The translations under genes were made by a program, and so were the position numbers. From a virus (lineage: Duplodnaviria; Heunggongvirae; Uroviricota; Caudoviricetes), in the IMG/VR virus record IMGVR_UViG_2537561992_000019: a stretch of DNA of 17,225 nt; one strand, 5' to 3'. Every line of letters starts with the position of its first letter. Position 1 is the stretch's first letter. Below the pieces are notes generated by a model. That model did no database searches. It saw only the letters and a program-made list of their open reading frames with translations, and was not told where the DNA came from. This document shows, piece by piece, positions 535-17,225 of this stretch.

Positions 535-630
535 AAGAAATGAAAAAAGGCCACGCAGTTGCGCAGCCTGATAAACCCTGGTTAAAATCCACACGATAAC
601 AACACAACAATATCAGTATCTCATGCTATT

Positions 631-655
631 GCCCGAACCCATTCGGGCATTTTTT
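631..655 (+). terminator. rho-independent terminator-like hairpin (GCCCGAA-CCCA-TTCGGGC followed by T6)
   Basis: GC-rich stem with T-run on the plus strand; forms a back-to-back pair with the minus-strand hairpin at 661..684. Confidence 0.45.
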
Positions 656-660
656 ACCCA

Positions 661-684
661 TAAAAAGCCCCTCCGGAGAGGGGC
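661..684 (-). terminator. rho-independent terminator-like hairpin (GCCCCTC-TCCG-GAGGGGC followed by U5 on the minus strand)
   Basis: A-run 662..666 on plus gives the U-tract on minus; sits downstream of the TerB-like/membrane gene pair. Confidence 0.5.
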
Positions 685-808
685 ATGTTTGCATGCACAT
701 TCTTTTTCTTGTATGGTGCCGGGTGCCTCCCGGTGAATTCAGTATCAGCACCTAAATCCGCGATTATCCCATATACCTGGTTGCTGATCGCCCTCCGCAC
801 AGGGGGAT

Positions 809-1018
809 TCACCATGCAGAAGTGTTTTTAATAAACAGCAAACAAAAAAACCAAGCATTATGCAGGCTGTTTCTTTTTATCACCGGCCACAGCAATACCA
901 CAATGCCGCAGACCAGCACCCCATCCGCCAGCACCGACATGATTCTGCTGGTGAAATCCACCATCACCACCAGAAACAGCAGGAGTGCAGCCACAGCCAG
1001 GCGCAGTTTTACCGTCAC
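809..1018 (-). CDS. small predicted membrane protein, 69 aa, two hydrophobic helices
   Basis: GTG at 1018..1016 overlaps the TerB-like stop (GTGA). Hydrophobic stretches LRLAVAALLLFLVVMV and GVLVCGIVVLLWPVI. Alternative ATG start at 964. Could be a non-coding tail. Confidence 0.35.
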   Translation of the reverse strand: MTVKLRLAVAALLLFLVVMVDFTSRIMSVLADGVLVCGIVVLLWPVIKRNSLHNAWFFCLLFIKNTSAW

Positions 1019-1615: not shown

Positions 1616-1692
1616 TGGCGCGTTGTAGTGGAGTCGAACCACTGACCGATTGCTTAGAAGGCAATTGCTCTGTCCGGCTGAGCTAACAACGC
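1616..1692 (-). tRNA. tRNA-Arg (anticodon UCU), 77 nt, phage-encoded
   Basis: Hand-folded cloverleaf: 7-bp acceptor stem GCGTTGT/ACAACGC, anticodon loop CTTCTAA, T-arm GTGG-TTCGACT-CCAC, encoded CCA end. Confidence 0.9.
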
Positions 1693-1792
1693 AGAATACC
1701 GATAATGGACCGCCATCGGGGACCCGCCCCCGCACCAACAACCCTGTTATGGTGTCGTCTGCTCTTCCTGATAAGCTAATGGCGGTTTGTGA

Positions 1793-1868
1793 TGGTGGCC
1801 CTTGCTGGATTTGAACCAGCGACCTGGCGATTATGAGTCGCTCGCTCTCACCACTGAGCTAAAGGGCC
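1793..1868 (-). tRNA. tRNA with CAU anticodon, 76 nt (Ile2/lysidine type by recalled similarity to E. coli ileX; Met not excluded)
   Basis: Acceptor stem GGCCCTT/AAGGGCC, anticodon loop CTCATAA, T-arm GCTGG-TTCAAAT-CCAGC, encoded CCA end. Confidence 0.85.
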
Positions 1869-1917: not shown

Positions 1918-2967
1918 TCAAACGATTAAATCCTGAACTTCCCTGACTGTCTGTTCAAAGCGTCCGGTCTCCAGCTCAACACCAATCGCACAACGCCCCA
2001 GTGCCATCGCCGCTTTTACCGTTGAACCTGAACCCATAAAAAAATCTGCAACCAGGTCTCCCGGACGACTGCTCGCGTTGATTATCTGCTGCAGCATTTC
2101 TGCCGGTTTTTCGCACGGATGTTTCCCTGGATAGTACTGCACCGGTTTATGCGTCCAGACATCGGTGTACGGAACCTGCGCCGTCACACCGAAATACCGC
2201 CGCAAATTTTTATATTCACTCAGCAGTTCCGTATACTGCCGGTTCAGCTCACTGTATGTGCTGACCAGCTGGTGGTGTGGCTTTTCCAGTTCCCCGCGCT
2301 GATGTTTTTCTGCCGCAACACGCGCAAACAACGCCTGCAATTTGTTGTAATCACCCTCGTTCGGTAACTGCCACTGACTGATACCAAACCAGTGCGAAGC
2401 CATGTTTTTCTTTCCGGTGGCTTCCGCTATCTGTTTTGACGTTATTCCCAGTGATTTACGCGCATCACGAAAGTAAGAAATCAGCGGGGCCATGACGTGC
2501 TGTTTTAGCTCGCGCCCCTGCTCCACATAGCCATCATCTTTCGGGCGATACGGTCCCTGATAATGTTCTGCAAACAGAATGCGCTCTGTTGCCGGAAAAT
2601 ACGCCCGCAGACTTTCCTTATTGCACCCGTTCCAGCGTCCGGACGGCTTCGCCCAGATAATGTGGTTCAGCACATTAAAGCGCTCACGCATCATGATTTC
2701 GGTGTCAGATGCCAGGCGATGACCACAGAACAGGTAAAGACTTCCGGCAGGCTTCAGTACCCGCCAGAACTGCGCCAGACACTGGTCCAGCCATTTCAGG
2801 TAATCATCGTCGCCCTCCCACTGGTTATCCCAGCCCTCGGGCTTCACTTTAAAGTATGGCGGGTCTGTGACTATCAGATCGACAGAGTTTTCCGGTAAGG
2901 TCTGGATAAATTCCAGGCAATCAGCGTTGATTAACTCACAACTGGATATTTTTACAGTATTAATCAT
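1918..2967 (-). CDS. orphan DNA methyltransferase, beta-class (N6-adenine or N4-cytosine), 349 aa
   Basis: DPPY catalytic motif near the N-terminus (LIVTDPPYF) and AdoMet-binding motif FFMGSGST near the C-terminus. No restriction endonuclease gene adjacent. Confidence 0.85.
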   Translation of the reverse strand: MINTVKISSCELINADCLEFIQTLPENSVDLIVTDPPYFKVKPEGWDNQWEGDDDYLKWLDQCLAQFWRVLKPAGSLYLFCGHRLASDTEIMMRERFNVLNHIIWAKPSGRWNGCNKESLRAYFPATERILFAEHYQGPYRPKDDGYVEQGRELKQHVMAPLISYFRDARKSLGITSKQIAEATGKKNMASHWFGISQWQLPNEGDYNKLQALFARVAAEKHQRGELEKPHHQLVSTYSELNRQYTELLSEYKNLRRYFGVTAQVPYTDVWTHKPVQYYPGKHPCEKPAEMLQQIINASSRPGDLVADFFMGSGSTVKAAMALGRCAIGVELETGRFEQTVREVQDLIV

Positions 2968-3627: not shown

Positions 3628-4182
3628 CTAAGCGTCAGTAAAAGAAAATGCATCTCGCATCAGTGGATACAGAATAAACTCAGCTATTCTCAGCCACATA
3701 TCTATACGATTGCGGCATGTTGCATAGCACCACTCAGGGTGAACCTCATTCAACAATTCAGCCATTTTGCGTTTACTCATCCCCCGCCCTTCGTATCTTT
3801 GCCGCAGGATATCAATCAATCCAGGATAACGTGCAAGCGCTTTACTTATCACCCCATCAATGCGTAACGCCTCTGCATCAGTACAGTGAGACAACCAGCT
3901 CTTCTGTCTGCCAGCGATCATCTCTCGCAAGAATGCTTCCAGCTCTGGTTTATCAATCCCTGACTCCCTGATTCTACGCAGGGCTTCATTGATTGCGGTT
4001 TTTGTCAGTTTTTTGGATGCCAGCAACTGATTGAACATATTTCCTGTTTTGCTACCACCTATATACGACCAACGCCCCCACATCCGTAATTTCCCCTGGA
4101 TCCAGACGGCTTCCAGCGTTTTTAGACGTAAATGCTCGCCGCTTTTGCCTGTAATTTCCGGGTATATCATATTTACGATCAC
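3628..4182 (-). CDS. putative late-gene antiterminator Q, 184 aa (GTG 4182) or 180 aa (ATG 4170)
   Basis: Assigned by position only: directly after rusA and directly before a strong terminator and the late-region island. No motif confirmed. Confidence 0.45.
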   Translation of the reverse strand: MIVNMIYPEITGKSGEHLRLKTLEAVWIQGKLRMWGRWSYIGGSKTGNMFNQLLASKKLTKTAINEALRRIRESGIDKPELEAFLREMIAGRQKSWLSHCTDAEALRIDGVISKALARYPGLIDILRQRYEGRGMSKRKMAELLNEVHPEWCYATCRNRIDMWLRIAEFILYPLMRDAFSFTDA

Positions 4183-6047: not shown

Positions 6048-6203
6048 TTACTCCTCAGGTTCGTAAGCTGTGAAGACAGCGACCTCCGTCTGGCCGGTTC
6101 GGATTCGTACCTCGCAGAGGTCTTTCCTCGTTACCAGTGCCGTCACTATGACGGTTAAACAGATGACGATCAGGGCGATTAACATCGCCTTTTGCTGCTT
6201 CAT
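6048..6203 (-). CDS. hokD: Hok-family type I toxin, 51 aa
   Basis: MKQQKAMLIALIVICLTVIVTALVTRKDLCEVRIRTGQTEVAVFTAYEPEE matches HokD/RelF as I recall it; ATG at 6203..6201 with AGGAGA Shine-Dalgarno. Confidence 0.9.
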   Translation of the reverse strand: MKQQKAMLIALIVICLTVIVTALVTRKDLCEVRIRTGQTEVAVFTAYEPEE

Positions 6204-6375
6204 AACCTGCTTCTCCTTGCCTTTCGGCGCGTAAGAGGCTAACCTACGTTTGTGAAGCATAGATTGGGCCTCAGATTAATGTTAAGCGTCTTGCAGGACG
6301 CGTAATGTTAACTGGGGCTTTTCTCTGTCTGCCTTACGGTGGCATGCCCGAGGCAGACAGCCTCAAGCACCCGCA
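6204..6375 (-). promoter_or_regulatory. hok mRNA 5' leader, including a mok-like in-frame start at 6260
   Basis: 5' end sequence UGCGGGUGCUUGAGGCUGUCUGCCUC resembles the 5' end of plasmid R1 hok mRNA (recalled) and is complementary to the 3' end at 5983..5998. Confidence 0.5.
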
Positions 6376-6378
6376 GCA

Positions 6379-6406
6379 ATTCTACTTAACTCTCGCTTTA
6401 CAGCAA
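6379..6406 (-). promoter_or_regulatory. candidate sigma-70 promoter of hok mRNA (-35 TTGCTG, 16-nt spacer, -10 TAGAAT)
   Basis: Hexamers read on the minus strand, correctly placed 5-7 nt upstream of the inferred 5' end. Confidence 0.4.
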
Positions 6407-6446
6407 ACCGTTTTGCCCGATATGGGAATTCCCATACGGAATGAAT

Positions 6447-6551
6447 TCAGTTCCCCAGGCGCTCCATCAAAAACACAACCAGGCAGTAAACACCCACAAC
6501 AGCAATAACAGCCAGAGCGCCTTCCATTACCAGTGAAATATCATCCGACAT
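6447..6551 (-). CDS. 34-aa hydrophobic peptide (MSDDISLVMEGALAVIAVVGVYCLVVFLMERLGN)
   Basis: ATG at 6551..6549 preceded by GGGAGGG at ideal spacing; single predicted transmembrane helix. Below the ORF-track size cutoff. Confidence 0.4.
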   Translation of the reverse strand: MSDDISLVMEGALAVIAVVGVYCLVVFLMERLGN

Positions 6552-6660
6552 ATTCCCTCCCTTGGTGTGAATCCCGGCGAACGTTTTTACCCCCACCGAC
6601 AAATAACATATACTAGAAAAGCAATAGCTATAGCAACGCCTGCAAATGCATCTGGCCGGC

Positions 6661-7224
6661 TCATTGGTTCTCCCCCTGTGTCGCTTCTACTGCGATCTGA
6701 CTGGCGTATTCGTTAATGGTAACGATAAGTTCTTGCTCGGCCTCATCCAGACAACTACCGATACCTCGCCTGTCCACTTCAGAAGCATCGAAATCTGCAC
6801 GAAGCCTGGCGACCTTCAGGATTGCGGACAACACCTCATCAGGGATTGCCGGAGAGTTGGTTGACGTTTCCGAGATTATCCGAAAATTATTGGTTGACGA
6901 ACCCTTATTTTCCCGAAAGTTTCCAGCCTGAAGCATGGCGGCGCGGTGACACCAGATAATCCAGCCAAGCGCCATATCCCATGCCATGTATTCTCTATCG
7001 CCATTTTTTGCTCTGCGGCGATCTACAGATTCCCCGAAACGCTTCTCCATAAATAATTCATAGGCTGCCCGTTCATCCGATACTGATGCCAGTGATGCCA
7101 GTGCAATTTTTAATGCGGTAAGCATGTTGTTTTGATCTTCATCGAGTCCGAACGGTATTTCATCCCGTGATGACTCAATTCCGGTAATCGTGTACTGTAG
7201 CCATTCTTTGGTTAATTCAGTCAT
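6661..7224 (-). CDS. hypothetical protein, 187 aa, acidic, predicted helical
   Basis: ATG at 7224..7222; GC hairpin ACCGCCC-TTTC-GGGCGGT at 7234..7251 just upstream. No recognisable motif. Confidence 0.6.
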   Translation of the reverse strand: MTELTKEWLQYTITGIESSRDEIPFGLDEDQNNMLTALKIALASLASVSDERAAYELFMEKRFGESVDRRRAKNGDREYMAWDMALGWIIWCHRAAMLQAGNFRENKGSSTNNFRIISETSTNSPAIPDEVLSAILKVARLRADFDASEVDRRGIGSCLDEAEQELIVTINEYASQIAVEATQGENQ

Positions 7225-7350
7225 TTTTCACTACCGCCCTTTCGGGCGGTCTCCTGATGTTCTGAGGGTGCAGGAATCCCTCCGGTTAAGGATTTAATAA
7301 AAATCATTTCTGATTTAAATTTTCAGTGTTTAGTTGTTGGTTTATAGCCT

Positions 7351-7662
7351 TTATGCTTCGGCCTTATTTCTCAGCCATACACAAACAGGACCATCTTCGG
7401 TGTCATGTATCGAACCGATAAACCATCCCTCACCTTCTGGTCGCTCAGGTTCCCATGCTGAAATATCAGGGCCATCTGCGTCCAGATTAAAATCATCTTC
7501 ATCCATACTACGGATAGCCCACTGAAGATTATTTTTCTCCATCCAGGCGTTAAACTCTTCCGTTGAAATATATTCCCGACCATCACAGAATTTTTCATAT
7601 TCAGGATGCGTCCAGCAGCCATATTCATTACGTTCCACTGGCATTTCTTTAATTGCGCTCAT
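7351..7662 (-). CDS. hypothetical acidic protein, 103 aa
   Basis: ATG at 7662..7660 preceded by AAGGGGGG; ATGA overlap with the upstream gene stop. Confidence 0.6.
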   Translation of the reverse strand: MSAIKEMPVERNEYGCWTHPEYEKFCDGREYISTEEFNAWMEKNNLQWAIRSMDEDDFNLDADGPDISAWEPERPEGEGWFIGSIHDTEDGPVCVWLRNKAEA

Positions 7663-7847
7663 TTACCCCCCTTATTTAATTTTCTACGACACTTTTTACA
7701 ATCATCTGGACTTTCGAATGTATCCGGCTCACGCTCATTGCCAAAATACATCCACCCACCGCAAGTACTTGTTATTTCACCTTCAGCAAAATAATGATGC
7801 TTTTTCGCCATAAGTGGCCTTGCCCAGCCCGGATTCGTTTTACTCAC
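7659..7847 (-). CDS. hypothetical small Cys/His-containing protein, 62 aa (GTG 7847) or 50 aa (ATG 7811)
   Basis: CGG...CKKC plus HH residues suggest possible metal binding; overlaps both neighbours. Confidence 0.5.
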   Translation of the reverse strand: MSKTNPGWARPLMAKKHHYFAEGEITSTCGGWMYFGNEREPDTFESPDDCKKCRRKLNKGGK

Positions 7848-8200
7848 TTGTTGCCTCCTTTGCGAAGCTCTGCGACTAACTCGTCACATATGTGCGTCAA
7901 AGAGCAAAGTTTGATTGCTGGATGTTCGCGCACCATCTCCACACCCTGCGCCCGCAATTCTGCCAGAAAAGCGTAGGGGTCAGTTTTTTCACTGTGGTAC
8001 ATGGCATCATAGATAATCATTGCAGCGACACCTGCCTGTCCTGCATCTGTGACGGATATATGCTCAAGGGCTACGGCCATTGCGTGTTTCAACCTCTCAT
8101 TTTCCACCTCAAGCACCACACGATTAGCCTCCAGCTCTTCTATGCGTTTTTTTGCTGCTCCCAGCTCAACACGCAGCTCCTGATAGTTAATCTCGCTCAT
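7844..8200 (-). CDS. hypothetical protein, 118 aa, N-terminal coiled-coil-like segment
   Basis: ATG at 8200..8198 preceded by GGGAGGAAGGAGA; heptad-like LRVELGAAKKRIEELEANRVVLEVENERLK. Confidence 0.6.
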   Translation of the reverse strand: MSEINYQELRVELGAAKKRIEELEANRVVLEVENERLKHAMAVALEHISVTDAGQAGVAAMIIYDAMYHSEKTDPYAFLAELRAQGVEMVREHPAIKLCSLTHICDELVAELRKGGNK

Positions 8201-8421
8201 TCTCCTTCCTCCCGCACTGCTGTTTTATATGCCCGAAGCACATGCGATGTTTTTCCTGACACAGTGCTTCTCAGAAAGAAAATTCCACTGGTGTTTATTA
8301 CCAGATACGGGTCAGCAAGACGCAGCATATCCAGTATGTGATTATGTTTTCTTGTTTCCAGCACCGTACTGGAAATAAGCATATGTGACACGGGGCCGAA
8401 ATCATGATATCTGATTTTCAT
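8197..8421 (-). CDS. hypothetical protein, 74 aa
   Basis: ATG at 8421..8419; stop overlaps the downstream start (ATGA). No motif recognised. Confidence 0.5.
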   Translation of the reverse strand: MKIRYHDFGPVSHMLISSTVLETRKHNHILDMLRLADPYLVINTSGIFFLRSTVSGKTSHVLRAYKTAVREEGE

Positions 8422-8442
8422 ATCATCACCCTGCTGTAAAAA

Positions 8443-9141
8443 TTACCCGTTATCTCCTGTCGTTATTTTCTGTATGACATCACGATGCTTATTAATTTCC
8501 CGCAGCGCGGCGCATAAGCGCTCCCACTTCTGAACCTGACCTTTTGCCCGGCGCAGCTCGCGGTTAGCCACATGCAGCGATGGTAAAATCAGACCATCCG
8601 GATGCTTTCTGATGAACGACGACTGTGACTGCACTGTGACCGCCACACTTTCAGTTTTAATTTCTTCCTGTGTTTCCGCTTCCCGGACTGGTAACGCAAC
8701 ACCTGCCGGCTGAGGAAAGGCTTTACCATCGGTTTCCGTTACCGATGCAGCTTTCGGCTCTGCCGGTAAATTATCGCCCGGTATGCAGTAACGATATTGA
8801 CCGTCCTGATTTACGCGAATCAGACGACCTTTGCTGACAGCCATCGCCAGTGATGAATTCGCCCGGCGGGAGGTAATCCCGAACATTAACGCCAGTTCGT
8901 CAGCCGACTGAGGACCATGCTGTTCAATCGCGTTAATCAGCATCTCTGCAGTGGTTTTTGGGGCCGCTTCAGTTGCCTCACTCGTCAGCCACCACATCGA
9001 CCCCTTGTTATCAGCTTCGCCACGACGCTTCAGCTTCCAGAGTTCGGTAACAGCATCGTCACGGCTGATTTCAAGACGGGCTGCAATCTCGTGCGACGAG
9101 GCTTTTTTCAGTGCTTTCAGTGCGTCAAAAACGGTTTCCAT
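8443..9141 (-). CDS. hypothetical phage protein, 232 aa, with two winged-helix-like segments (possibly DUF1627-like)
   Basis: ATG at 9141..9139 preceded by GGGAGG; the track ORF starts 22 codons upstream without a Shine-Dalgarno. Confidence 0.6.
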
Positions 9142-9175
9142 TAAATTTTCCTCCCGGTAAAAATTACTTCTCAAC

Positions 9176-9838
9176 TCAGACAAAACCGGCCGCCTTCCGG
9201 CGCTCATATTCCTGTTTCAGCAATTCAATTGGCGTTGGCCCTGGCGGGCGTTTGGGTGCTGCCAGTTGTCGCCGGACTGGCGGAACACTGAGGCCATTAC
9301 CAACATGCTTTGCCCATTTCGTCAGCTGCCTTTCCACAAGCCGTTTTAACTCCCCTTCGGTCATCTGGCGCTCAATCCCCTTTGAACGCATCTCGAGGCA
9401 AATGTGGTACAGCACCGGCTGTGGCCACGGGTATTTATCACTCCCGTCGTACCGCCAGGATTCATTCCTCCAGCGACGGTATTCCTCCATCACGGCATCC
9501 ACCGTCAGGCCAAATGGATTTGCCCCGCTCTCCGAAATCAACGCCACAAACTCAGCCAGATCCGGAGGCCACGTTTCACCCGCCCGGCAGCGGTCCATGC
9601 ACCGACGGCAGATCTGCCGGATTTGCTGTTCAGTCATCGCGCCAATCTGAGCAATCCAGAGTTTCGACGGCGCAGCCCCGTTCTTCTGAGTCCAGCGGTT
9701 CGAATACACCTCCCCCATAAGCTCCCACAGCTTCCAGGCCGTTTCCGTTGCTGATAAATCCGTTTTCACGTTCCCACTGTTCGCGTGCAGCCCGGATTTC
9801 CTGAACTGCCCGTGATGCGGTGCCACCTGGTGCTGCAT
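9176..9838 (-). CDS. replication protein P-like (helicase loader), up to 220 aa
   Basis: C-terminal half resembles lambda P as I recall it ([17 protein letters not shown] vs ESYPWKSNAHYWLVTNLY). ATG 9838 has AGGGGG upstream; alternative starts at 9718 and 9637. Confidence 0.65.
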
Positions 9839-10667
9839 GGCTTACCCCCTTGCTGACTGGTTTTACCTGTGCCCTGACGTGCTGCACGTGGCGGGCAAAT
9901 TTCTGCTCCCACTGAACCTGCGTGAAAACCTTCCCCTCCGCCATCCAGTAATCCCGGAATGCGGCAAGCTCAGCAGGTGTAAACTCAGGCTCAGGCAGAG
10001 CCATACCCCACACTGCTGCCCGCTGTCGAAAATCCGGCGACGGTTGCCAGACTCCAGTCATCGGAAATTTCCCGATCGGTTCGCTCAGGCCGTCCAGGTA
10101 TTCAGGTTCGGCTGTCTGCAACGACGCGTCATTCAACTCACCGGTCGTAGCACTCTCGCGCATGCGCGCGTTATGTGTGGGGTTTAATTCTTTATCTGTA
10201 TCTGTATCTGTCGTGATTTGTCGTGACATATGCGTGACGCGTCGTGACTCATCGTGACAATCAGTGTTCTGCTTCCGCAGTCTTTCCCGCTCCCGCTGCG
10301 CTCTCTTGCGCTCTGCCGGGGATTTTGCGGTTTGCGAAACATTACCGTTATCCTCCTTCATCACCTGGCGTTTTTCCCATCCGGAAATAAGATCACCATC
10401 CAGAACTCGCCCCTGCATTGCATGCAAAATTGAATCAATCACGTCTTCCGTCACATCAAGCGCACTTGCTAAATCTTCCGTCGTGACATCAATGTGACCA
10501 CGTAGTGACACGCCGTGACATGTCGTGACATTTCGTGACGCACTCACCAGAAGGTGGATATACACCGCCATCACTGTTGCGATTGGCTGTCCTGAGACCC
10601 TGGCAATGGTTCGCCATTTGGGATCATTTGGCATGTCATGCCACAATCTGAGCCAGGCATTAGCCAT
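9630..10667 (-). CDS. replication initiator O-like protein, 345 aa, with origin iterons inside the coding sequence
   Basis: ATG at 10667..10665 preceded by GAGGTGA; two internal GTGAC iteron arrays; immediately upstream of the P-like gene. Confidence 0.7.
   Translation of the reverse strand: MANAWLRLWHDMPNDPKWRTIARVSGQPIATVMAVYIHLLVSASRNVTTCHGVSLRGHIDVTTEDLASALDVTEDVIDSILHAMQGRVLDGDLISGWEKRQVMKEDNGNVSQTAKSPAERKRAQRERERLRKQNTDCHDESRRVTHMSRQITTDTDTDKELNPTHNARMRESATTGELNDASLQTAEPEYLDGLSEPIGKFPMTGVWQPSPDFRQRAAVWGMALPEPEFTPAELAAFRDYWMAEGKVFTQVQWEQKFARHVQHVRAQVKPVSKGVSHAAPGGTASRAVQEIRAAREQWERENGFISNGNGLEAVGAYGGGVFEPLDSEERGCAVETLDCSDWRDD
10211..10258. repeat. iteron array A: five (T)CGTGA(C/T) repeats at 10-11 bp spacing, next to an (ATCTGT)x3 tract at 10194..10210
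   Basis: Repeat starts at 10211, 10221, 10232, 10242 and 10252, read directly. Confidence 0.6.
10483..10539. repeat. iteron array B: six GTGAC repeats at 10-11 bp spacing
   Basis: GTGAC at 10483, 10494, 10505, 10515, 10525 and 10535, read directly. Confidence 0.6.
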
Positions 10668-10735
10668 ACTCACCTCATCTGATACCGAACTTTACCCTCG
10701 AACATCCGGAATAAATCCGGCATGAATATTGTTGG

Positions 10736-11161
10736 TCAATGCACGACAACAGCATTACCAGGCTGACCACCACTGTTAGTCAGGGTGCCCCAGGCGATCG
10801 CCGCTGCGACAAAATCATCCACATCTTTCACCAGCCGATCCCTCCGTTCGACGATCTCACGGTAATATTCAGAGCTGTGACTGCGCATACGGGCCACCAG
10901 CAGAGGCGGCATTGCCTTTTCGATCGCCGGTAACAGAGCCTGAATTTTTTCAACAGCATCAGGGGTGTCTTTATCCAGCCAACGGAAAATTTTCTGGGTA
11001 TTACGAGCCAGGGCTTCCGGATGGCTGTCGTCGTACAGTTCCGGGAACGTCATCCCCAGCTCGAAATAAGTCCGGGCTATTTCAGCTGCAGGAACTTTCT
11101 CACCGTCCGGATAGGCCCAGGCATTGATCGCCATGCGGATGTGCTCATGTTTGATTTTCAT
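10736..11161 (-). CDS. YdaT-like protein at the cII position, 141 aa
   Basis: Starts MKIKHEHI...; its ATG overlaps the stop of the cro 3' fragment (ATGA). Family call is from recollection. Confidence 0.5.
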   Translation of the reverse strand: MKIKHEHIRMAINAWAYPDGEKVPAAEIARTYFELGMTFPELYDDSHPEALARNTQKIFRWLDKDTPDAVEKIQALLPAIEKAMPPLLVARMRSHSSEYYREIVERRDRLVKDVDDFVAAAIAWGTLTNSGGQPGNAVVVH

Positions 11162-11307
11162 GAATCCCCCTTTCCTTCGCCCTGAGTGGTATCCTTCTTT
11201 TTGTAAAGTTCTGGGTTCAAAGATAATTTCCCCTTGGAGTATGCAGCAGCTTCCGCAGCCCTCCCCTTCGGAACTATTTCACCAGGACGCTTACGCCACA
11301 TGTAAAT
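11161..11307 (-). pseudogene. cro: cro-like gene, 3' fragment (48 codons plus the duplicated ATT codon)
   Basis: Joins in frame with the 5' fragment at 13535..13615 once the IS and inverted segment are removed. Confidence 0.7.
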
Positions 11308-11350
11308 TGAGGTGTACTGGCAATAGCGGACACTACCATTTGTTCTTTTT

Positions 11351-12255
11351 TTAAGCAGCCATCTGATGATATTTTTCCCTGAAGGCTGCCGGGGAGATAT
11401 TCCCCAGACGAGAGTGACGACGCTGACGATTGTAGAAAATCTCAATGTATTCCCGTATTACTGAGATGGCTTCATCCCGGTTATTAAAACGATAGTGGCT
11501 CAGGCTCTCATTTTTCAGCGTTCCCCAGAAGCTTTCCATCGGAGCGTTGTCGTAACAGTTACCTTTACGCGACATTGATGTTTTCAGACCAAACTGCTCC
11601 TGTATGACCCGGTAATCGTATGCGCAGTACTGTGAACCTCGATCAGAGTGGTGGATTAGCCCGGCAGGTGGGCGCTGGCTCCTGAGCGCCATAAACAGAG
11701 CTTTACCTGTCAGCTCTTTTGTCATGCGCTCTCCCATGGCGTAGCCGACAATTTCGCACGTATAAACATCTTTGATGCCAGCGAGGTACAACCATCCCTC
11801 CTGTGTGGCAACATACGTCAGGTCCGCCACCCAGACCTGATTTGGTGCTGTAGGAGCGAACGTCTGGTTCAGCAGATTTGGCGCAACTGGCAGATTGTGG
11901 TTCGAGTTCGTAGTCGCTCTGAACTTGCGTTTCTGCTTACAGCGTAGCCTTAGCTCCTTACGAAGACGTGCCAGTCGGTCACGACCAACGATGATGCCAT
12001 TCTCTGCCAGCTCCGTCTGGAGCCGCCGGGTTCCATATGTTTCGCGAGTGCGGATATGTGCCACCTTAATCTCCAGTTTTAGCCGCTCATCACTTTGTTT
12101 CTGTCTGAGGGTTCATGCTGTACCCAGTTGTAATAACCGCTCCTGGATACACCAAATACCTGACACATCGCTTCAATGGGAAATTGTTGTCGCCATTGTT
12201 CGATTAACGCGTATTTTTCAGCGACTCCTGTGCAAAATACGCTGTTGCTTTTTTT
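11351..12255 (-). pseudogene. IS3-family transposase orfB, frameshifted by a 1-bp deletion
   Basis: TTT at 12098..12100 where copy 2 has AAAA at 14086..14089, truncating the OrfAB frame. Confidence 0.7.
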
Positions 12256-12506
12256 AATATATCTCGCTCAAGGCGAGCTTCATTTAACGCCTTACGCAGT
12301 TGCAGAATTTCAGATTCCAGTTCAGCCACCGTGCGGGAACCAGGAGTACCGAGCCCTTTTCTGGCGGCGGTAACCCATTGTCCTAAAGTGCCTTCAGGAA
12401 GAGATAATCGGGAAGCGCCTTCACTGATCGAAAGTTGATTTTCAAGAACCGTTCTGACAGCTTCGGCTTTGAACTCTTTAGAGTAACGTTGGGTTTTTCT
12501 GCTCAT
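12204..12506 (-). CDS. IS3-family transposase OrfA, 100 aa
   Basis: Protein identical to OrfA of copy 2; HTH-containing N-terminal transposase part. Confidence 0.85.
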   Translation of the reverse strand: MSRKTQRYSKEFKAEAVRTVLENQLSISEGASRLSLPEGTLGQWVTAARKGLGTPGSRTVAELESEILQLRKALNEARLERDILKKATAYFAQESLKNTR

Positions 12507-12698
12507 TATTAGCTCCTTCTGATGCCATTCTATTTCAGGAAGGAGTGTCCGTTAAACTCAGGCTACCTCACTGTTATACAAAGTGTTCCCGCCGTCATGT
12601 TCATACGCCTCGGGCTGGCTACTTAACCCCTGACCACTGCCGGGTAACTCGAGGTATTGCCCGACGTTCTGTGGGGCGAGGTAGGGTGGTATGTAATA

Positions 12699-12727
12699 AA
12701 TCTAAAAGTATTTAGTTTTTCAGTCAA
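12699..12727 (-). promoter_or_regulatory. candidate PL-like promoter (-35 TTGACT, 17-nt spacer, -10 TAGATT) with overlapping operator 12700..12717
   Basis: Hexamers read on the minus strand; operator ATCTAA-N6-TTAGTT overlaps the -10; palindrome AATCTAGATT at 12732..12741. Confidence 0.4.
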
Positions 12728-12746
12728 GATAAATCTAGATTAATTT

Positions 12747-12772
12747 AAAAAAAAGGTCGGCATTGCCGACCT
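12747..12772 (-). terminator. rho-independent terminator directly after the cI stop
   Basis: Hairpin GGTCGGC-ATT-GCCGACC followed by U8 on the minus strand. Confidence 0.6.
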
Positions 12773-12792
12773 CAAGTAAAGGACGTGGCGGG

Positions 12793-13440
12793 TTATAAGT
12801 TGAACTGTACACCTTTTGCTACGGCAACAATTTTACACTCTGGTGTAAGTAAGGATGACTGATAGCGTGGATTGAGAGGGCTTAAATACACAAGCTTCCC
12901 ATCAATAACTAATTTCTTTATAGTCATAGATGGTTCATTTTTAAGCGGATCCGGAACTATTACAGCGACGATGCTGCCATTTTTATAACTTTCTCCTGGC
13001 CTTAGGATCACAGTAGCACCAACTGGGATACTCGGTGATCCTGATGGGTTATGCATTGTGTCATCAGGCATTGAAACGGCAAAATCACCTTCCTCGACAT
13101 CAAAGAATGTGGTGATCCTATCGACATTTCCCATTGTTTTCTCTCCTTTTAAGATTAGGAAAGAAATCGCCTCACCCCACGAAAGGTAGGGGATCTTGGT
13201 GCCTGAGGTACTTTGTACAAAAGATAATTCAGGAGACGATACTCCATATAGGAGATAGGACTCAGTAGTTCCTAATGCCTGGGCTAACTTACTTAGAGCT
13301 TTGCTACCTGGTTCGTTTAGATCTTTCTCCCAGTACCCTATAGTAACCCCAGTCACGCCTGAAAGCTTACCCAGTTCTACTTGGGTCAGCCCCTTATCTT
13401 TTCTAAGTCTCTTAAGCCTGATGCCAAGGCTTTCCATCAT
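12793..13440 (-). CDS. cI: CI-like prophage repressor, 215 aa (N-terminal HTH, C-terminal LexA-like S24 peptidase)
   Basis: ATG at 13440..13438 preceded by AGGAGAAA. HTH LTQVELGKLSGVTGVTIGYWE; S24 region with Ser in AVSM and Lys in TIKKL, resembling lambda CI (recalled). Confidence 0.85.
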   Translation of the reverse strand: MMESLGIRLKRLRKDKGLTQVELGKLSGVTGVTIGYWEKDLNEPGSKALSKLAQALGTTESYLLYGVSSPELSFVQSTSGTKIPYLSWGEAISFLILKGEKTMGNVDRITTFFDVEEGDFAVSMPDDTMHNPSGSPSIPVGATVILRPGESYKNGSIVAVIVPDPLKNEPSMTIKKLVIDGKLVYLSPLNPRYQSSLLTPECKIVAVAKGVQFNL

Positions 13441-13479
13441 TTTCTCCTGCAAATTGAATATAAATTATTTTAGATTGCA

Positions 13480-13522
13480 TTGACCTAAAAAAAATTATCT
13501 TGTAATCTAAAAATACTTAGAT
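13480..13522 (+). promoter_or_regulatory. candidate PR-like promoter (-35 TTGACC, 17-nt spacer, -10 TAATCT) with perfect operator ATCTAA-N6-TTAGAT at 13505..13522
   Basis: Read directly; drives the cro fragment, which has AGGAGG Shine-Dalgarno and ATG at 13535. Confidence 0.45.
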
Positions 13523-13534
13523 TTAGGAGGTAAA

Positions 13535-13615
13535 ATGCGAGTTGATGAACTTGTCCAGTTTTTTGGTTCTGTTCAGAGGGTTGCCGATTTTTATGGGATA
13601 ACCCGCGAAGCTATT
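13535..13615 (+). pseudogene. cro: cro-like gene, 5' fragment (27 codons), truncated by the IS insertion
   Basis: MRVDELVQFFGSVQRVADFYGITREAI; the next codon is TGA supplied by the first bases of the IS. Confidence 0.7.
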
Positions 13616-13679
13616 TGAGGTAGCCTGAGTTTAACGGACACTCCTTCCTGAAATAGAATGGCATCAGAAGGAGCTAATA

Positions 13680-13982
13680 ATGAGCAGAAAAACCCAACGT
13701 TACTCTAAAGAGTTCAAAGCCGAAGCTGTCAGAACGGTTCTTGAAAATCAACTTTCGATCAGTGAAGGCGCTTCCCGATTATCTCTTCCTGAAGGCACTT
13801 TAGGACAATGGGTTACCGCCGCCAGAAAAGGGCTCGGTACTCCTGGTTCCCGCACGGTGGCTGAACTGGAATCTGAAATTCTGCAACTGCGTAAGGCGTT
13901 AAATGAAGCTCGCCTTGAGCGAGATATATTAAAAAAAGCAACAGCGTATTTTGCACAGGAGTCGCTGAAAAATACGCGTTAA
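13680..13982 (+). CDS. IS3-family transposase OrfA, 100 aa
   Basis: ATG at 13680 after GAAGGAG; contains the A7G run at 13931..13938 near its 3' end. Confidence 0.85.
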   Translation: MSRKTQRYSKEFKAEAVRTVLENQLSISEGASRLSLPEGTLGQWVTAARKGLGTPGSRTVAELESEILQLRKALNEARLERDILKKATAYFAQESLKNTR

Positions 13983-14836
13983 TCGAACAATGGCGACAAC
14001 AATTTCCCATTGAAGCGATGTGTCAGGTATTTGGTGTATCCAGGAGCGGTTATTACAACTGGGTACAGCATGAACCCTCAGACAGAAAACAAAGTGATGA
14101 GCGGCTAAAACTGGAGATTAAGGTGGCACATATCCGCACTCGCGAAACATATGGAACCCGGCGGCTCCAGACGGAGCTGGCAGAGAATGGCATCATCGTT
14201 GGTCGTGACCGACTGGCACGTCTTCGTAAGGAGCTAAGGCTACGCTGTAAGCAGAAACGCAAGTTCAGAGCGACTACGAACTCGAACCACAATCTGCCAG
14301 TTGCGCCAAATCTGCTGAACCAGACGTTCGCTCCTACAGCACCAAATCAGGTCTGGGTGGCGGACCTGACGTATGTTGCCACACAGGAGGGATGGTTGTA
14401 CCTCGCTGGCATCAAAGATGTTTATACGTGCGAAATTGTCGGCTACGCCATGGGAGAGCGCATGACAAAAGAGCTGACAGGTAAAGCTCTGTTTATGGCG
14501 CTCAGGAGCCAGCGCCCACCTGCCGGGCTAATCCACCACTCTGATCGAGGTTCACAGTACTGCGCATACGATTACCGGGTCATACAGGAGCAGTTTGGTC
14601 TGAAAACATCAATGTCGCGTAAAGGTAACTGTTACGACAACGCTCCGATGGAAAGCTTCTGGGGAACGCTGAAAAATGAGAGCCTGAGCCACTATCGTTT
14701 TAATAACCGGGATGAAGCCATCTCAGTAATACGGGAATACATTGAGATTTTCTACAATCGTCAGCGTCGTCACTCTCGTCTGGGGAATATCTCCCCGGCA
14801 GCCTTCAGGGAAAAATATCATCAGATGGCTGCTTAA
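13931..14836 (+). CDS. IS3-family transposase orfB segment, expressed as an OrfAB fusion by programmed -1 frameshift
   Basis: The -1 frame is open from the A7G run to the stop at 14836; first in-frame ATG is at 14018. C-terminal half has the IS3-family catalytic region (HSDRGSQY, MSRKGNCYDNAPMESFW). Confidence 0.8.
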   Translation, partial: KKSNSVFCTGVAEKYALIEQWRQQFPIEAMCQVFGVSRSGYYNWVQHEPSDRKQSDERLKLEIKVAHIRTRETYGTRRLQTELAENGIIVGRDRLARLRKELRLRCKQKRKFRATTNSNHNLPVAPNLLNQTFAPTAPNQVWVADLTYVATQEGWLYLAGIKDVYTCEIVGYAMGERMTKELTGKALFMALRSQRPPAGLIHHSDRGSQYCAYDYRVIQEQFGLKTSMSRKGNCYDNAPMESFWGTLKNESLSHYRFNNRDEAISVIREYIEIFYNRQRRHSRLGNISPAAFREKYHQMAA

Positions 14837-14934
14837 AAAAAGAACAAATGGTAGTGTCCGCTATTGCCAGTACACCTCACAGCGCAGCAGGTTTTTAGTT
14901 CCGCGACCCGGCGTTAAGGGTAAATGAGGTCAAC

Positions 14935-15087
14935 ATGGATATGCTCAATCTTGGCAACAATGAATCTCTGGTGTGCGGAGTATTCCCCAACCACGACGGC
15001 ACGTTTACCGCGATGACGTATACCAGAAGTAAAACGTTTAAAACCGAAGCTGGCGCGCATCGCTGGTTAGCAAGAAACGCTAACTGA
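14935..15087 (+). CDS. ydfA: small protein, 50 aa, YdfA/YdaF-like, first gene of the PL-type operon
   Basis: ATG at 14935 after GAGGT; position before dicF/dicB matches ydfA of Qin (recalled). Confidence 0.55.
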   Translation: MDMLNLGNNESLVCGVFPNHDGTFTAMTYTRSKTFKTEAGAHRWLARNAN

Positions 15088-15349
15088 TTAGCGCCAGTAA
15101 AAACAGGTTTCCACAGGTTAATTTACCCTGAAAAGTCAGGGCATAACACGAAAGCGCACGGCGAGATCCCTTTGCATATAAGTCTTGTCGTTAAATTTCT
15201 TCGACCGTGCGCTTCTGGTTGTGGCAATCCGCGAAATGGCGCGGCGGTAAGTATGGCGGGGTTATTCCTTCCCCCATTGAGGACACCGGGTTGTCAGGTT
15301 GACCATACGCTTAAGTGACAACCCCGCTGCAACGCCCTCTGTTATCAAT

Positions 15350-15407
15350 TTTCTGGTGACGTTTGGCGGTATCAGTTTTACTCCGTGACTGCTCTGCCGC
15401 CCTTTTT
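15350..15407 (+). ncRNA. dicF: DicF small RNA (53 nt, 15350..15402) plus its terminator U-tract
   Basis: TTTCTGGTGACGTTTGGCGGTATCAGTTTTACTCCGTGACTGCTCTGCCGCCC followed by TTTTT matches E. coli DicF as I recall it; lies just upstream of dicB. Confidence 0.8.
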
Positions 15408-15576
15408 AAAGTGAATTTTGTGATGCGGTGAATACGGCTAAGCGCACGCGGAACAGTTAAAACCAAAAACAGTGTTATGGGTGGATTCTCTGTATCCGGC
15501 GTTAATTGTTAACTGGTTAACGTCACCTGGAGGCACCAGGCACTGCATCACAAAATTCATTGTTGAGGACGCGATA

Positions 15577-15765
15577 ATGGAAACGTTATTACCAAACGTT
15601 AATACGTCTGAAGGTTGTTTTGAAATTGGTGTCACTATCAGTAACCCTGTATTTACTGAAGATGCCATTAACAAGAGAAAACACGAACGGGAGTTATTAA
15701 ATAAAATATGCATTCTTTCAATGCTGGCCCGTTTACGTCCGATACAAAAAGGATGCTGGCAATGA
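15577..15765 (+). CDS. dicB: cell-division inhibitor DicB, 62 aa
   Basis: METLLPNVNTSEGCFEIGVTISNPVFTEDAINKRK... matches DicB (recalled); GAGGA Shine-Dalgarno. Confidence 0.9.
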   Translation: METLLPNVNTSEGCFEIGVTISNPVFTEDAINKRKHERELLNKICILSMLARLRPIQKGCWQ

Positions 15766-15953
15766 ATACAGCATTTGCACTTGTTCTGACAGTTTTTCTT
15801 GTTTCCGGAGAGCCAGTTGATATTGCAGTCAGTGTTCACAGGACAATGCAGGAGTGTGTGACTGCAGCAACCGAACAGAAAATTCCCGGTAACTGTTACC
15901 CTGTCGATAAAGTTATTCACCAGGATAATAACGAAATCCCGGCAGGTCTTTAA
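15762..15953 (+). CDS. ydfD: YdfD-like small lysis-associated membrane protein, 63 aa
   Basis: MNTAFALVLTVFLVSGEPVDIAVSVHRTMQEC... matches YdfD (recalled); ATG overlaps the dicB stop (ATGA). Confidence 0.8.
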   Translation: MNTAFALVLTVFLVSGEPVDIAVSVHRTMQECVTAATEQKIPGNCYPVDKVIHQDNNEIPAGL

Positions 15954-16045
15954 AACAGTTCCGTAATAAACATCCGATTTCATTCTTATATGCCAGAAAT
16001 GGCAGGGATTTGTTCACCCTTAAATCTGTAATGAGGTAAAACAAA

Positions 16046-16942
16046 ATGAGTAAAGTCTTTATTTGCGCCGCCATTCCGGACGAACAGGCAATAAAGGAAG
16101 AAGGTGCAGTCGCTGTAGCCACTGCCATTGAAGCCGGTGATGAACGTCGCGCCCGCGCAAAATTTCACTGGCAATTCCTGGAACATTATCCGGCTGCTCA
16201 GGACTGCGCTTATAAATTTCTTGTTTGCGAGGATAAACCCGGTATACCCCGCCCTGCCCTCGATTCCTGGGATGCTGAATATATGCAGGAAAACCGCTGG
16301 GATGAGGAGTCTGCTTCCTTTGTCCCGGTTGAGACTGAATCAGATCCGATGAACGTCACTTTTGACAAGCTGGCCCCTGAAGTACAGAACGCTGTCATGG
16401 TTAAGTTCGACACATGTGAAAACATCACCGTTGATATGGTGATTAGCGCGCAGGAATTGTTGCAGGAAGACATGGCAACATTCGACGGACATATCGTTGA
16501 AGCGTTGATGAAAATGCCAGAAGTTAACGCCATGTATCCGGAGCTTAAGCTGCATGCCATCGGGTGGGTTAAGCATAAATGTAAGCCTGGTGCCAAATGG
16601 CCCGAAATTCAGGCAGAGATGCGCATCTGGAAAAAACGTCGCGAAGGTGAACGCAAGGAAACCGGAAAATACACGTCTGTTGTTGATCTCGCCCGCGCCA
16701 GAGCCAATCAACAGAACACTGAAAATTCAACAGGAAAAATCAGCCCGGTCATTGCTGCCACTCATCGCGAATACAAGCAGACATGGAAAACACTGGATGA
16801 CGAACTGGCCTACGCTCTCTGGCCTGGTGATGTGGATGCCGGAAACATTGACGGCAGCATCCATCGCTGGGCAAAAAAAGAAGTTATCGACAACGACCGC
16901 GAAGACTGGAAGCGCAGTCTCAGCAATGCGCAAACAGCCTGA
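16046..16942 (+). CDS. ydfE: YdfE-like hypothetical protein, 298 aa
   Basis: Long acidic ORF directly after ydfD, as in Qin; family call is from recollection. Confidence 0.6.
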   Translation: MSKVFICAAIPDEQAIKEEGAVAVATAIEAGDERRARAKFHWQFLEHYPAAQDCAYKFLVCEDKPGIPRPALDSWDAEYMQENRWDEESASFVPVETESDPMNVTFDKLAPEVQNAVMVKFDTCENITVDMVISAQELLQEDMATFDGHIVEALMKMPEVNAMYPELKLHAIGWVKHKCKPGAKWPEIQAEMRIWKKRREGERKETGKYTSVVDLARARANQQNTENSTGKISPVIAATHREYKQTWKTLDDELAYALWPGDVDAGNIDGSIHRWAKKEVIDNDREDWKRSLSNAQTA

Positions 16943-17225
16943 TGCCCTTCGCTACGACCGCCAGACTATTTTTGGCCTTGTCCGTGAACGTCCGATCGAC
17001 ATTCACAAAGACCCTGTGGCACTGAACAAATACATTACTGAATACCTGACTACAAAGGGCGTGTTTGAAGATGAAGGAAGAAATCAGAGCGCAACTGATA
17101 CTCTCTCGTCGCCAGTACCAGAAACTGATGCAGTGGAAACGGCAATTCCGGACAACGAAAAACCGAATAGCAAAGTGGAAGTCGAACCATCTGTAGAGCG
17201 TGAAGGGCCGTTCTACTTCCTCTTC
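16926..17225 (+). CDS. hypothetical protein, N-terminal 100 codons, runs off the window end
   Basis: ATG at 16926 overlapping the previous gene by 17 nt; 100 codons with no stop. A competing 40-codon frame from ATG 17071 is less likely. Confidence 0.35.
   Translation, partial: MRKQPDALRYDRQTIFGLVRERPIDIHKDPVALNKYITEYLTTKGVFEDEGRNQSATDTLSSPVPETDAVETAIPDNEKPNSKVEVEPSVEREGPFYFLF

Follow-up and report, generated by a model that had tools for sequence, protein, structure and literature searches.

The stretch of DNA considered in this work (the window) is the 17,225-bp phage sequence of the IMG/VR record IMGVR_UViG_2537561992_000019, which is the complete contig ADUN01000023.1 of the draft assembly GCA_000188755.2. 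It carries a dicF-dicB-ydfD module, a cell-division inhibition and lysis cassette also found in the Qin prophage of Escherichia coli (E. coli) K-12. The first-pass annotation, made from the sequence alone, had placed an intact module at 15350..15953, and both the interval and the gene content held: 15350..15953 runs exactly from the 5' end of the small RNA DicF to the stop codon of ydfD, the three elements are recognized by Rfam and Pfam models, and both proteins are identical to those of a prophage of E. coli O26:H11 str. 11368 (hereafter O26). In sequence, the module is intact, and none of DicF, dicB and ydfD could be a chance match. With the functions carried over from K-12, DicF would base-pair with ftsZ and other mRNAs, DicB would bind MinC and direct it against the FtsZ ring, and YdfD would lyse dividing cells, with a reported binding to IspG.

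The DicF covariance model (RF00039), which the first-pass annotation had expected at 15350..15402, matched 15351..15402 of the forward strand in a scan of the whole window, covering the full model (1-52/52) with 76.7 bits (E = 9.7e-16) against a gathering score of 48 bits. The 53 nt at 15350..15402 are 100% identical to K-12 dicF (b1574) and to the O26 copy, and the terminator hairpin at 15365..15401, followed by five U residues at 15403..15407, folds at -22 kcal/mol (z = -3.3 versus shuffled sequences). Pairing of K-12 DicF with ftsZ was validated by experiment (PMC5069750), and by its identity over the 53 nt the DicF of the window is predicted to be able to pair with ftsZ mRNA. In K-12, the only source of DicF and of the genes downstream is a transcript begun upstream of ydfA and then processed, no internal promoter having been found, and an RNase III substrate stem gives a 190-nt DicF precursor (PMC10448788). 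From about 15190 to the start of dicB the window is near-identical to K-12, including the 150 nt upstream of DicF and the downstream spacer; by gene order and sequence, DicF thus remains embedded between ydfA and dicB with its flanking RNase III and RNase E processing determinants. The module differs from the O26 copy at two positions only, 15434 and 15440, both G to A, and each change turns a G-U pair (with partners 15222 and 15216, respectively) into A-U, such that both strengthen the predicted stem that brackets DicF. The pair 15216/15440 forms a compensatory series, being C-G in K-12, U-G in O26 and U-A in the window. The processing context of DicF appears to be preserved, and the bracketing stem fits the K-12 RNase III substrate, such that cleavage is predicted.

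The DicB protein matches its Pfam family (PF05358) from end to end (1-62/62) with 127.4 bits (gathering 27; E = 1.7e-37) and is identical to WP_000449192.1 of O26. It differs from the K-12 protein in 7 of 62 residues (K2E, Q36H, V47L, L55P, M56I, P57Q and A61W). In K-12 DicB, Leu5 is critical and an intact N-terminus is required for activity, whereas K2A, K2G and K2R stay toxic and the last 8 residues are dispensable (PMC4967827); the N-terminus in the window, METLLPNV, has no residue deleted and keeps L5, and five of the seven differences sit at positions tolerant in that mutagenesis. YdfD matches DUF1482 (PF07358) over residues 4-61 with 88 bits (gathering 25; E = 3.7e-25), is identical to WP_001090200.1 of O26, and differs from K-12 YdfD in 4 of 63 residues. 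Lysis by K-12 YdfD needs both termini, and a single-residue deletion at either end weakens it (PMC8835842); here the protein runs untruncated from M1 to L63 with both termini present. The start codon of ydfD and the stop codon of dicB overlap (ATGA). No frameshift, premature stop or truncation was found in dicB or ydfD by reading the open reading frames (ORFs) and comparing them with O26 and K-12, and exactly these DicB and YdfD proteins, like that of ydfA upstream, each occur on at least 1000 public contigs. Inactivating changes, which had been named as a reason to doubt the module, were therefore rejected, since the genes are full-length, their alleles are common and the DicB differences largely fall at K-12-tolerant positions. 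By extension from the K-12 mutagenesis, both variants would be active.

The gene content around the module fits an operon of the dicBF type (Table 1). Its first gene, ydfA, encodes a protein identical to O26 WP_000367376.1, and at the nucleotide level it is about 85% identical to ydfA of K-12. Compared with the Qin operon of K-12 (ydfABC-dicF-dicB-ydfDE), the order ydfA ... dicF-dicB-ydfD-ydfE is common to both, the window is 94.4% identical over 15103..16821, and both have the identical DicF, the ATGA overlap of dicB and ydfD, and the RNase III stem around DicF. Unlike Qin, the window is without ydfB and ydfC, as is O26; its repressor is of the cI type (helix-turn-helix plus peptidase S24) and not DicA, such that promoter and operators differ; and its operon is cut from the promoter by the insertion sequence (IS) IS600. 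The closest complete relative is the O26 prophage beside potC (NC_013361.1, ~1.472-1.485 Mb), where ydaT and cro, both leftward, are followed by cI, ydfA (DUF1391), dicB, DUF1482, exonuclease, xis and int, and where YdfA, DicB, YdfD and CI are the same proteins as in the window. In that prophage, however, neither site carries IS600, cI lies the other way round, and cro and the exonuclease are intact (75 aa and 824 aa, respectively). From its gene order, the module corresponds to the early-left operon, the equivalent of the lambda PL operon, transcribed away from the immunity region. The same place downstream of the repressor is held in PL operons by kil of lambda and kilR of Rac, which block the FtsZ ring and cause filamentation on derepression; these genes and dicB are unrelated in sequence, Kil acts via ZipA and FtsZ whereas DicB acts via MinC, and kil has no DicF-like small RNA partner. 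Taken together, the interval is very likely the standard early-left (PL-type) operon ydfA-dicF-dicB-ydfD-(exonuclease) of a lambdoid prophage, separated by IS600 from its native promoter.

Table 1. Features of the dicBF-type operon and of the adjoining immunity region in the window.
Feature	Position	Strand	Basis or remark
IS600 copy A, 1263 bp, in cro	11308..12570	-	BLAST versus O26; target duplication AAT
PL-type promoter (putative), TTGACT-17-TAGATT	12699..12727	-	Promoter scan; operator-like repeats 12697..12718 and 12729..12747
cI-type repressor (HTH + peptidase S24), intact	12793..13437	-	Pfam HTH_3 + Peptidase_S24; inverted versus O26
PR-type promoter (putative), TTGACC-17-TAATCT	13480..13508	+	Sequence reading; operator-like repeat 13501..13525 overlaps
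cro remnant, 27 codons + TGA from IS600 end	13535..13618	+	Comparison with O26 Cro, 75 aa
IS600 copy B, 1264 bp, in PL leader	13616..14879	+	orfA 13680..13982, orfB 14018..14836
ydfA (DUF1391), 50 aa, first gene of dicBF-type operon	14935..15087	+	Pfam DUF1391, 98.8 bits
DicF-bracketing stem, 5' arm (predicted)	15200..15232	+	Predicted pairing with 15425..15452; RNase III role from K-12 (PMC10448788)
DicF small RNA, 53 nt	15350..15402	+	Rfam RF00039, K-12 identity, terminator hairpin fold
DicF-bracketing stem, 3' arm (predicted)	15425..15452	+	Predicted fold
dicB, 62 aa, MinC-dependent division inhibitor	15577..15765	+	Pfam DicB PF05358
ydfD, 63 aa, lysis protein (DUF1482)	15762..15953	+	Pfam PF07358
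ydfE/recE-like exonuclease gene, frameshifted after ~codon 290	16046..16942	+	O26 homologue 824 aa

The wiring of this region was derived by BLAST of the window against the O26 locus (L001) and against itself. Window positions 6347..11307 correspond to L001 1..4961 with 100% identity, 12571..13616 to L001 6004..4958 in inverted orientation with 99.9% identity, and 14879..17225 to L001 6001..8349 with 99.6% identity; the gaps between these blocks are filled by two copies, in opposite orientation, of a 1264-bp element. Its orfA and orfB products match HTH_Tnp_1 and rve in Pfam (as read in copy B), in keeping with the IS3 family, and the annotation given to homologous copies in E. coli genomes is IS3-like element IS600 family transposase. 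The two copies differ by one base only, in an A-run at about 12101 in copy A and 14086 in copy B, and this 1-bp deletion frameshifts orfB of copy A, leaving an ORF of 237 aa instead of 272 aa. Between the end of copy B and the ydfA ATG lie 55 nt. The target duplication AAT stands at 11305..11307 and its reverse complement at 13613..13615, while CAG stands at 14880..14882 and its reverse complement at 12571..12573. This pattern of 3-bp duplications is the one expected if IS600 inserted twice, independently, in cro and in the PL leader, and if recombination between the two copies then inverted the 1,046-bp segment with cI, PL and PR. The two insertions are certain; that the segment is really flipped has roughly even odds. 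Apart from orientation, the sole difference between the immunity segment and O26 is the loss of 1 nt from the T-run in the terminator of cI (12755), and both this deletion and the one at about 12101 could be homopolymer sequencing errors.

Other IS600 insertions that inactivate prophage genes in E. coli strains producing Shiga toxin (STEC) and in Shigella have the same 1264-bp length, orfA/orfB organization and 3-bp target duplications; here, in contrast, two inverted copies bracket an immunity region and, as assembled, swap the targets of PL and PR. Prophage decay through IS elements is commonplace in STEC and Shigella. When 11000..15400 of the window was searched against complete E. coli genomes, no place was covered to at least 80%, and none of these genomes shows the arrangement of the window; an un-inverted double insertion would score about 76% coverage and would rank first in this search. 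The best match, in E. coli strain 6883 (NZ_CP074998.1 2633507-2646333), was rejected as a relative of this arrangement, for it lies in a different, Qin-like prophage with DicA/DicC immunity. In that O26-type strain, one IS600 lies inside ydfD and another in recE of the Qin-like prophage, which suggests that IS600 strikes dicBF neighborhoods repeatedly. The exact junction of copy B with the ydfA leader had no match in a contig collection with one genome per species, a collection uninformative on strain-level frequency.

The repressor gene between the two IS600 copies encodes a CI protein identical to O26 WP_000444615.1 and related to the N-terminal domain of P22 C2 and to the C-terminal domain of lambda CI. 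The S24 motifs with the Ser (VSM) and the Lys (IKKL) are visible, and inspection of the protein gave no evident Ala-Gly self-cleavage site (the local sequence is SWGEAISF); whether this immunity type is inducible through SOS and RecA is uncertain. Four related operator-like repeats, all intact, lie beside the PL-type and PR-type promoters, and binding of CI to them is predicted. The cro remnant retains MRVDELVQFFGSVQRVADFYGITREAI and then runs into IS600. In O26, the PL-type sequence stands between cI and ydfA, facing ydfA. In the window as assembled, it points into IS600 copy A and on to the rest of cro, ydaT, O and P, and the PR-type promoter points through the 5' part of cro and copy B toward ydfA-dicF-dicB-ydfD. 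Accordingly, no repressor-controlled promoter was found immediately before ydfA, where a dicBF-type operon should have one: IS600 lies between, and PL points away in this assembly. The promoter linkage of the operon is broken in this copy. The claims that cro is disrupted and that the promoter wiring has changed were thus borne out, the former by the truncation of cro to 27 codons plus a stop with IS600 at 13616, the latter by copy B between the PL-type promoter and ydfA. Of the two changes that the first-pass annotation had named, it is not the loss of cro that is decisive for the module but copy B in the PL leader.

Expression of the module was then considered from its possible promoters. 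At the left end of copy B there is a promoter-like site at 13631..13659 (9 of 12 matches). Between this site and dicB, no site on the forward strand reached 9 of 12 matches. Relaxing the scan added only scattered 8 of 12 matches and no hybrid promoter at the right end of copy B. Without a promoter of its own, the module would depend on read-through transcripts that cross the 1.26 kb of IS600 and begin either at a promoter under CI control (PR in the assembled orientation, PL in the un-inverted one) or at the weak promoter of the IS600 transposase. As long as CI is intact, silence or weak expression is the most likely state of the module, to judge from the CI control and the barrier of 1.26 kb of IS. 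This conclusion is independent of the flip, because in either orientation sense transcription from a promoter under CI control would enter IS600 before it reaches ydfA. The repression state, which had been called uncertain, is narrowed in this way: intact cI and four intact operator-like sites, together with the IS barrier, predict silence or weak expression, and not derepression. If CI were inactivated, there would be no Cro to damp the early promoters, such that some transcript would reach the module, and filamentation, damped by the IS barrier, would be expected. Filamentation rather than lysis is proposed because in K-12 co-expressed DicB blocks the lysis induced by YdfD (PMC8835842). The earlier expectation of filamentation or lysis on derepression can accordingly be kept for filamentation, which would come first, and has to be qualified for lysis.

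Several points weigh against the reading of an intact, CI-controlled operon kept silent or weakly expressed behind IS600. Two of the DicB differences, Q36H and V47L, lie outside the positions examined in the K-12 mutagenesis, and it is this mutagenesis, carried out on the K-12 protein, from which the activity of the variants is argued. PL and PR are assigned by consensus and position, PR from its place upstream of cro. No intrinsic terminator was predicted on the forward strand between 13616 and 15350 (terminator scan; fold of 14830..14940, z = 0.26), such that nothing visible halts read-through across IS600, and Rho-dependent termination in the poorly translated orfB, although plausible, is an assumption. 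Finally, in a draft contig whose IS junctions are the same in both orientations, the inversion may be a choice of the assembly. This last point amounts to a different account of the locus, in which the two IS600 insertions in cro and the PL leader are as described, cI, PL and PR are normally oriented, and PL still faces the module with the same IS600 between. We consider this account a serious contender, at somewhat below even chances. An inversion between inverted repeats leaves the IS-flank junctions unchanged, and therefore reads shorter than the IS, that is, below 1.26 kb, cannot fix the orientation in this 17,225-bp draft contig; moreover, the 1-nt homopolymer indels at ~12101 and ~12755, the sole differences between the two IS copies and between the segment and O26, are typical of older pyrosequencing data. 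Against it, the assembler bridged both IS copies, a sign of some spanning information, for instance from mate pairs or long reads, and in genomes of E. coli and Shigella that are rich in IS elements, inverted repeats of 1.26 kb commonly undergo homologous recombination. Such recombination, driven by RecA, might even flip the 1,046-bp cI/PL/PR cassette back and forth between the two IS600 copies, although we regard this as very unlikely. If it were true, in one state the division-inhibition module would be read from PL through IS600 and the replication genes from PR, with the targets exchanged in the other; with cro destroyed, a single population would then hold two wiring states, and in the one assembled here the CI-controlled PR would drive DicF, DicB and YdfD.

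The insertion could also have turned the module into a constitutive, weakly expressed cassette that serves the host, giving steady low DicF and some DicB independently of CI. Copy B is in the sense orientation to the operon, with the promoter-like site at its left end and no predicted intrinsic terminator before dicF; the RNase III/RNase E processing region is intact, and low-level DicB in K-12 is reported to protect against some phages (PMC6832061, PMC10448788). We nevertheless find this unlikely. About 850 nt of poorly translated orfB favor Rho-dependent termination, the right end of the IS offers no hybrid promoter, and O26-type genomes, with 7 to 8 other module matches, have little need for this copy. 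Furthermore, the transposase promoters of the IS3 family are generally weak and autoregulated. It is still less probable, to the point that we give it hardly any weight, that the module is a decaying remnant whose DicB and YdfD variants are inactive and which is being lost like the adjacent exonuclease gene. The prophage is indeed degrading, with cro split and both the exonuclease gene and orfB of IS600 copy A frameshifted, and 7 of 62 DicB and 4 of 63 YdfD residues depart from the K-12 proteins that were functionally tested. However, both proteins are full-length, the same alleles occur on the many contigs mentioned above, five of the seven DicB differences fall where change or deletion is tolerated, DicF matches the functional RNA of K-12 at every base, and the two differences from O26 both strengthen pairs of the processing stem. 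We therefore favor the reading of an intact early-left operon cut off from its promoter by IS600.

Such a module is already known, and its presence here is confirmed but ordinary. Prophages of pathogenic E. coli widely carry the dicBF locus, in multiple copies (PMC5069750). In agreement, the 604-bp module had a match in 4638 of 5426 complete E. coli genomes (about 85%), with at least 80% coverage in 3779 of them, at a median of 2 places per genome and a maximum of 9, O26-type strains having 7 to 8; a 100% match to the 604-bp module was found in none of these complete genomes.

The exonuclease gene downstream of ydfD is 2 bp shorter than in O26 at 16915..16923, within a small cluster of substitutions. 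The reading changes from WKR|ISASMRKQ... to WKR|SLSNAQTA* with a stop at 16942, and the original frame resumes at about 16926 and continues to the end of the contig (gene 16046..17225). The frameshift could reflect a real pseudogene or a sequencing error; the exact 298-aa product was found on the ADUN01000023.1 contig only. No family was assigned to the N-terminal ORF in our Pfam scan, whereas precomputed matches list YdfE_N and YdfE_C, which are probably newer families.

Elsewhere in the window, the anti-GcvB small RNA AgvB was recognized at 594..655 (+) with 96.5 bits, adjacent to STnc100 at 656..846 (-) with 125.7 bits. Two phage tRNA genes, tRNA-Arg (anticodon tct) and tRNA-Met (anticodon cat), lie in 1616..1868 (-), downstream of a DNA methylase-like ORF at 1918..2967 (-) and of a putative Q-type antiterminator ORF at 3628..4182 (-), the latter assigned by eye from its translation. 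A hok/sok-type locus occupies 6048..6372 (-), where the Rfam sok match (114.9 bits at 6198..6372, -) adjoins a 70-aa ORF at 6048..6260 (-) with a Hok-like hydrophobic core.

The dicBF module is among the best-described cassettes of cryptic prophages, and this copy adds one more case of prophage decay mediated by IS elements. The apparent rewiring of the immunity region rests on an orientation in a draft assembly that short reads cannot establish. For the annotation of such prophages, the locus makes the point that an intact sequence is not the same as an expressible gene: DicF and DicB rely on a promoter that, in this copy, IS600 has severed from them.

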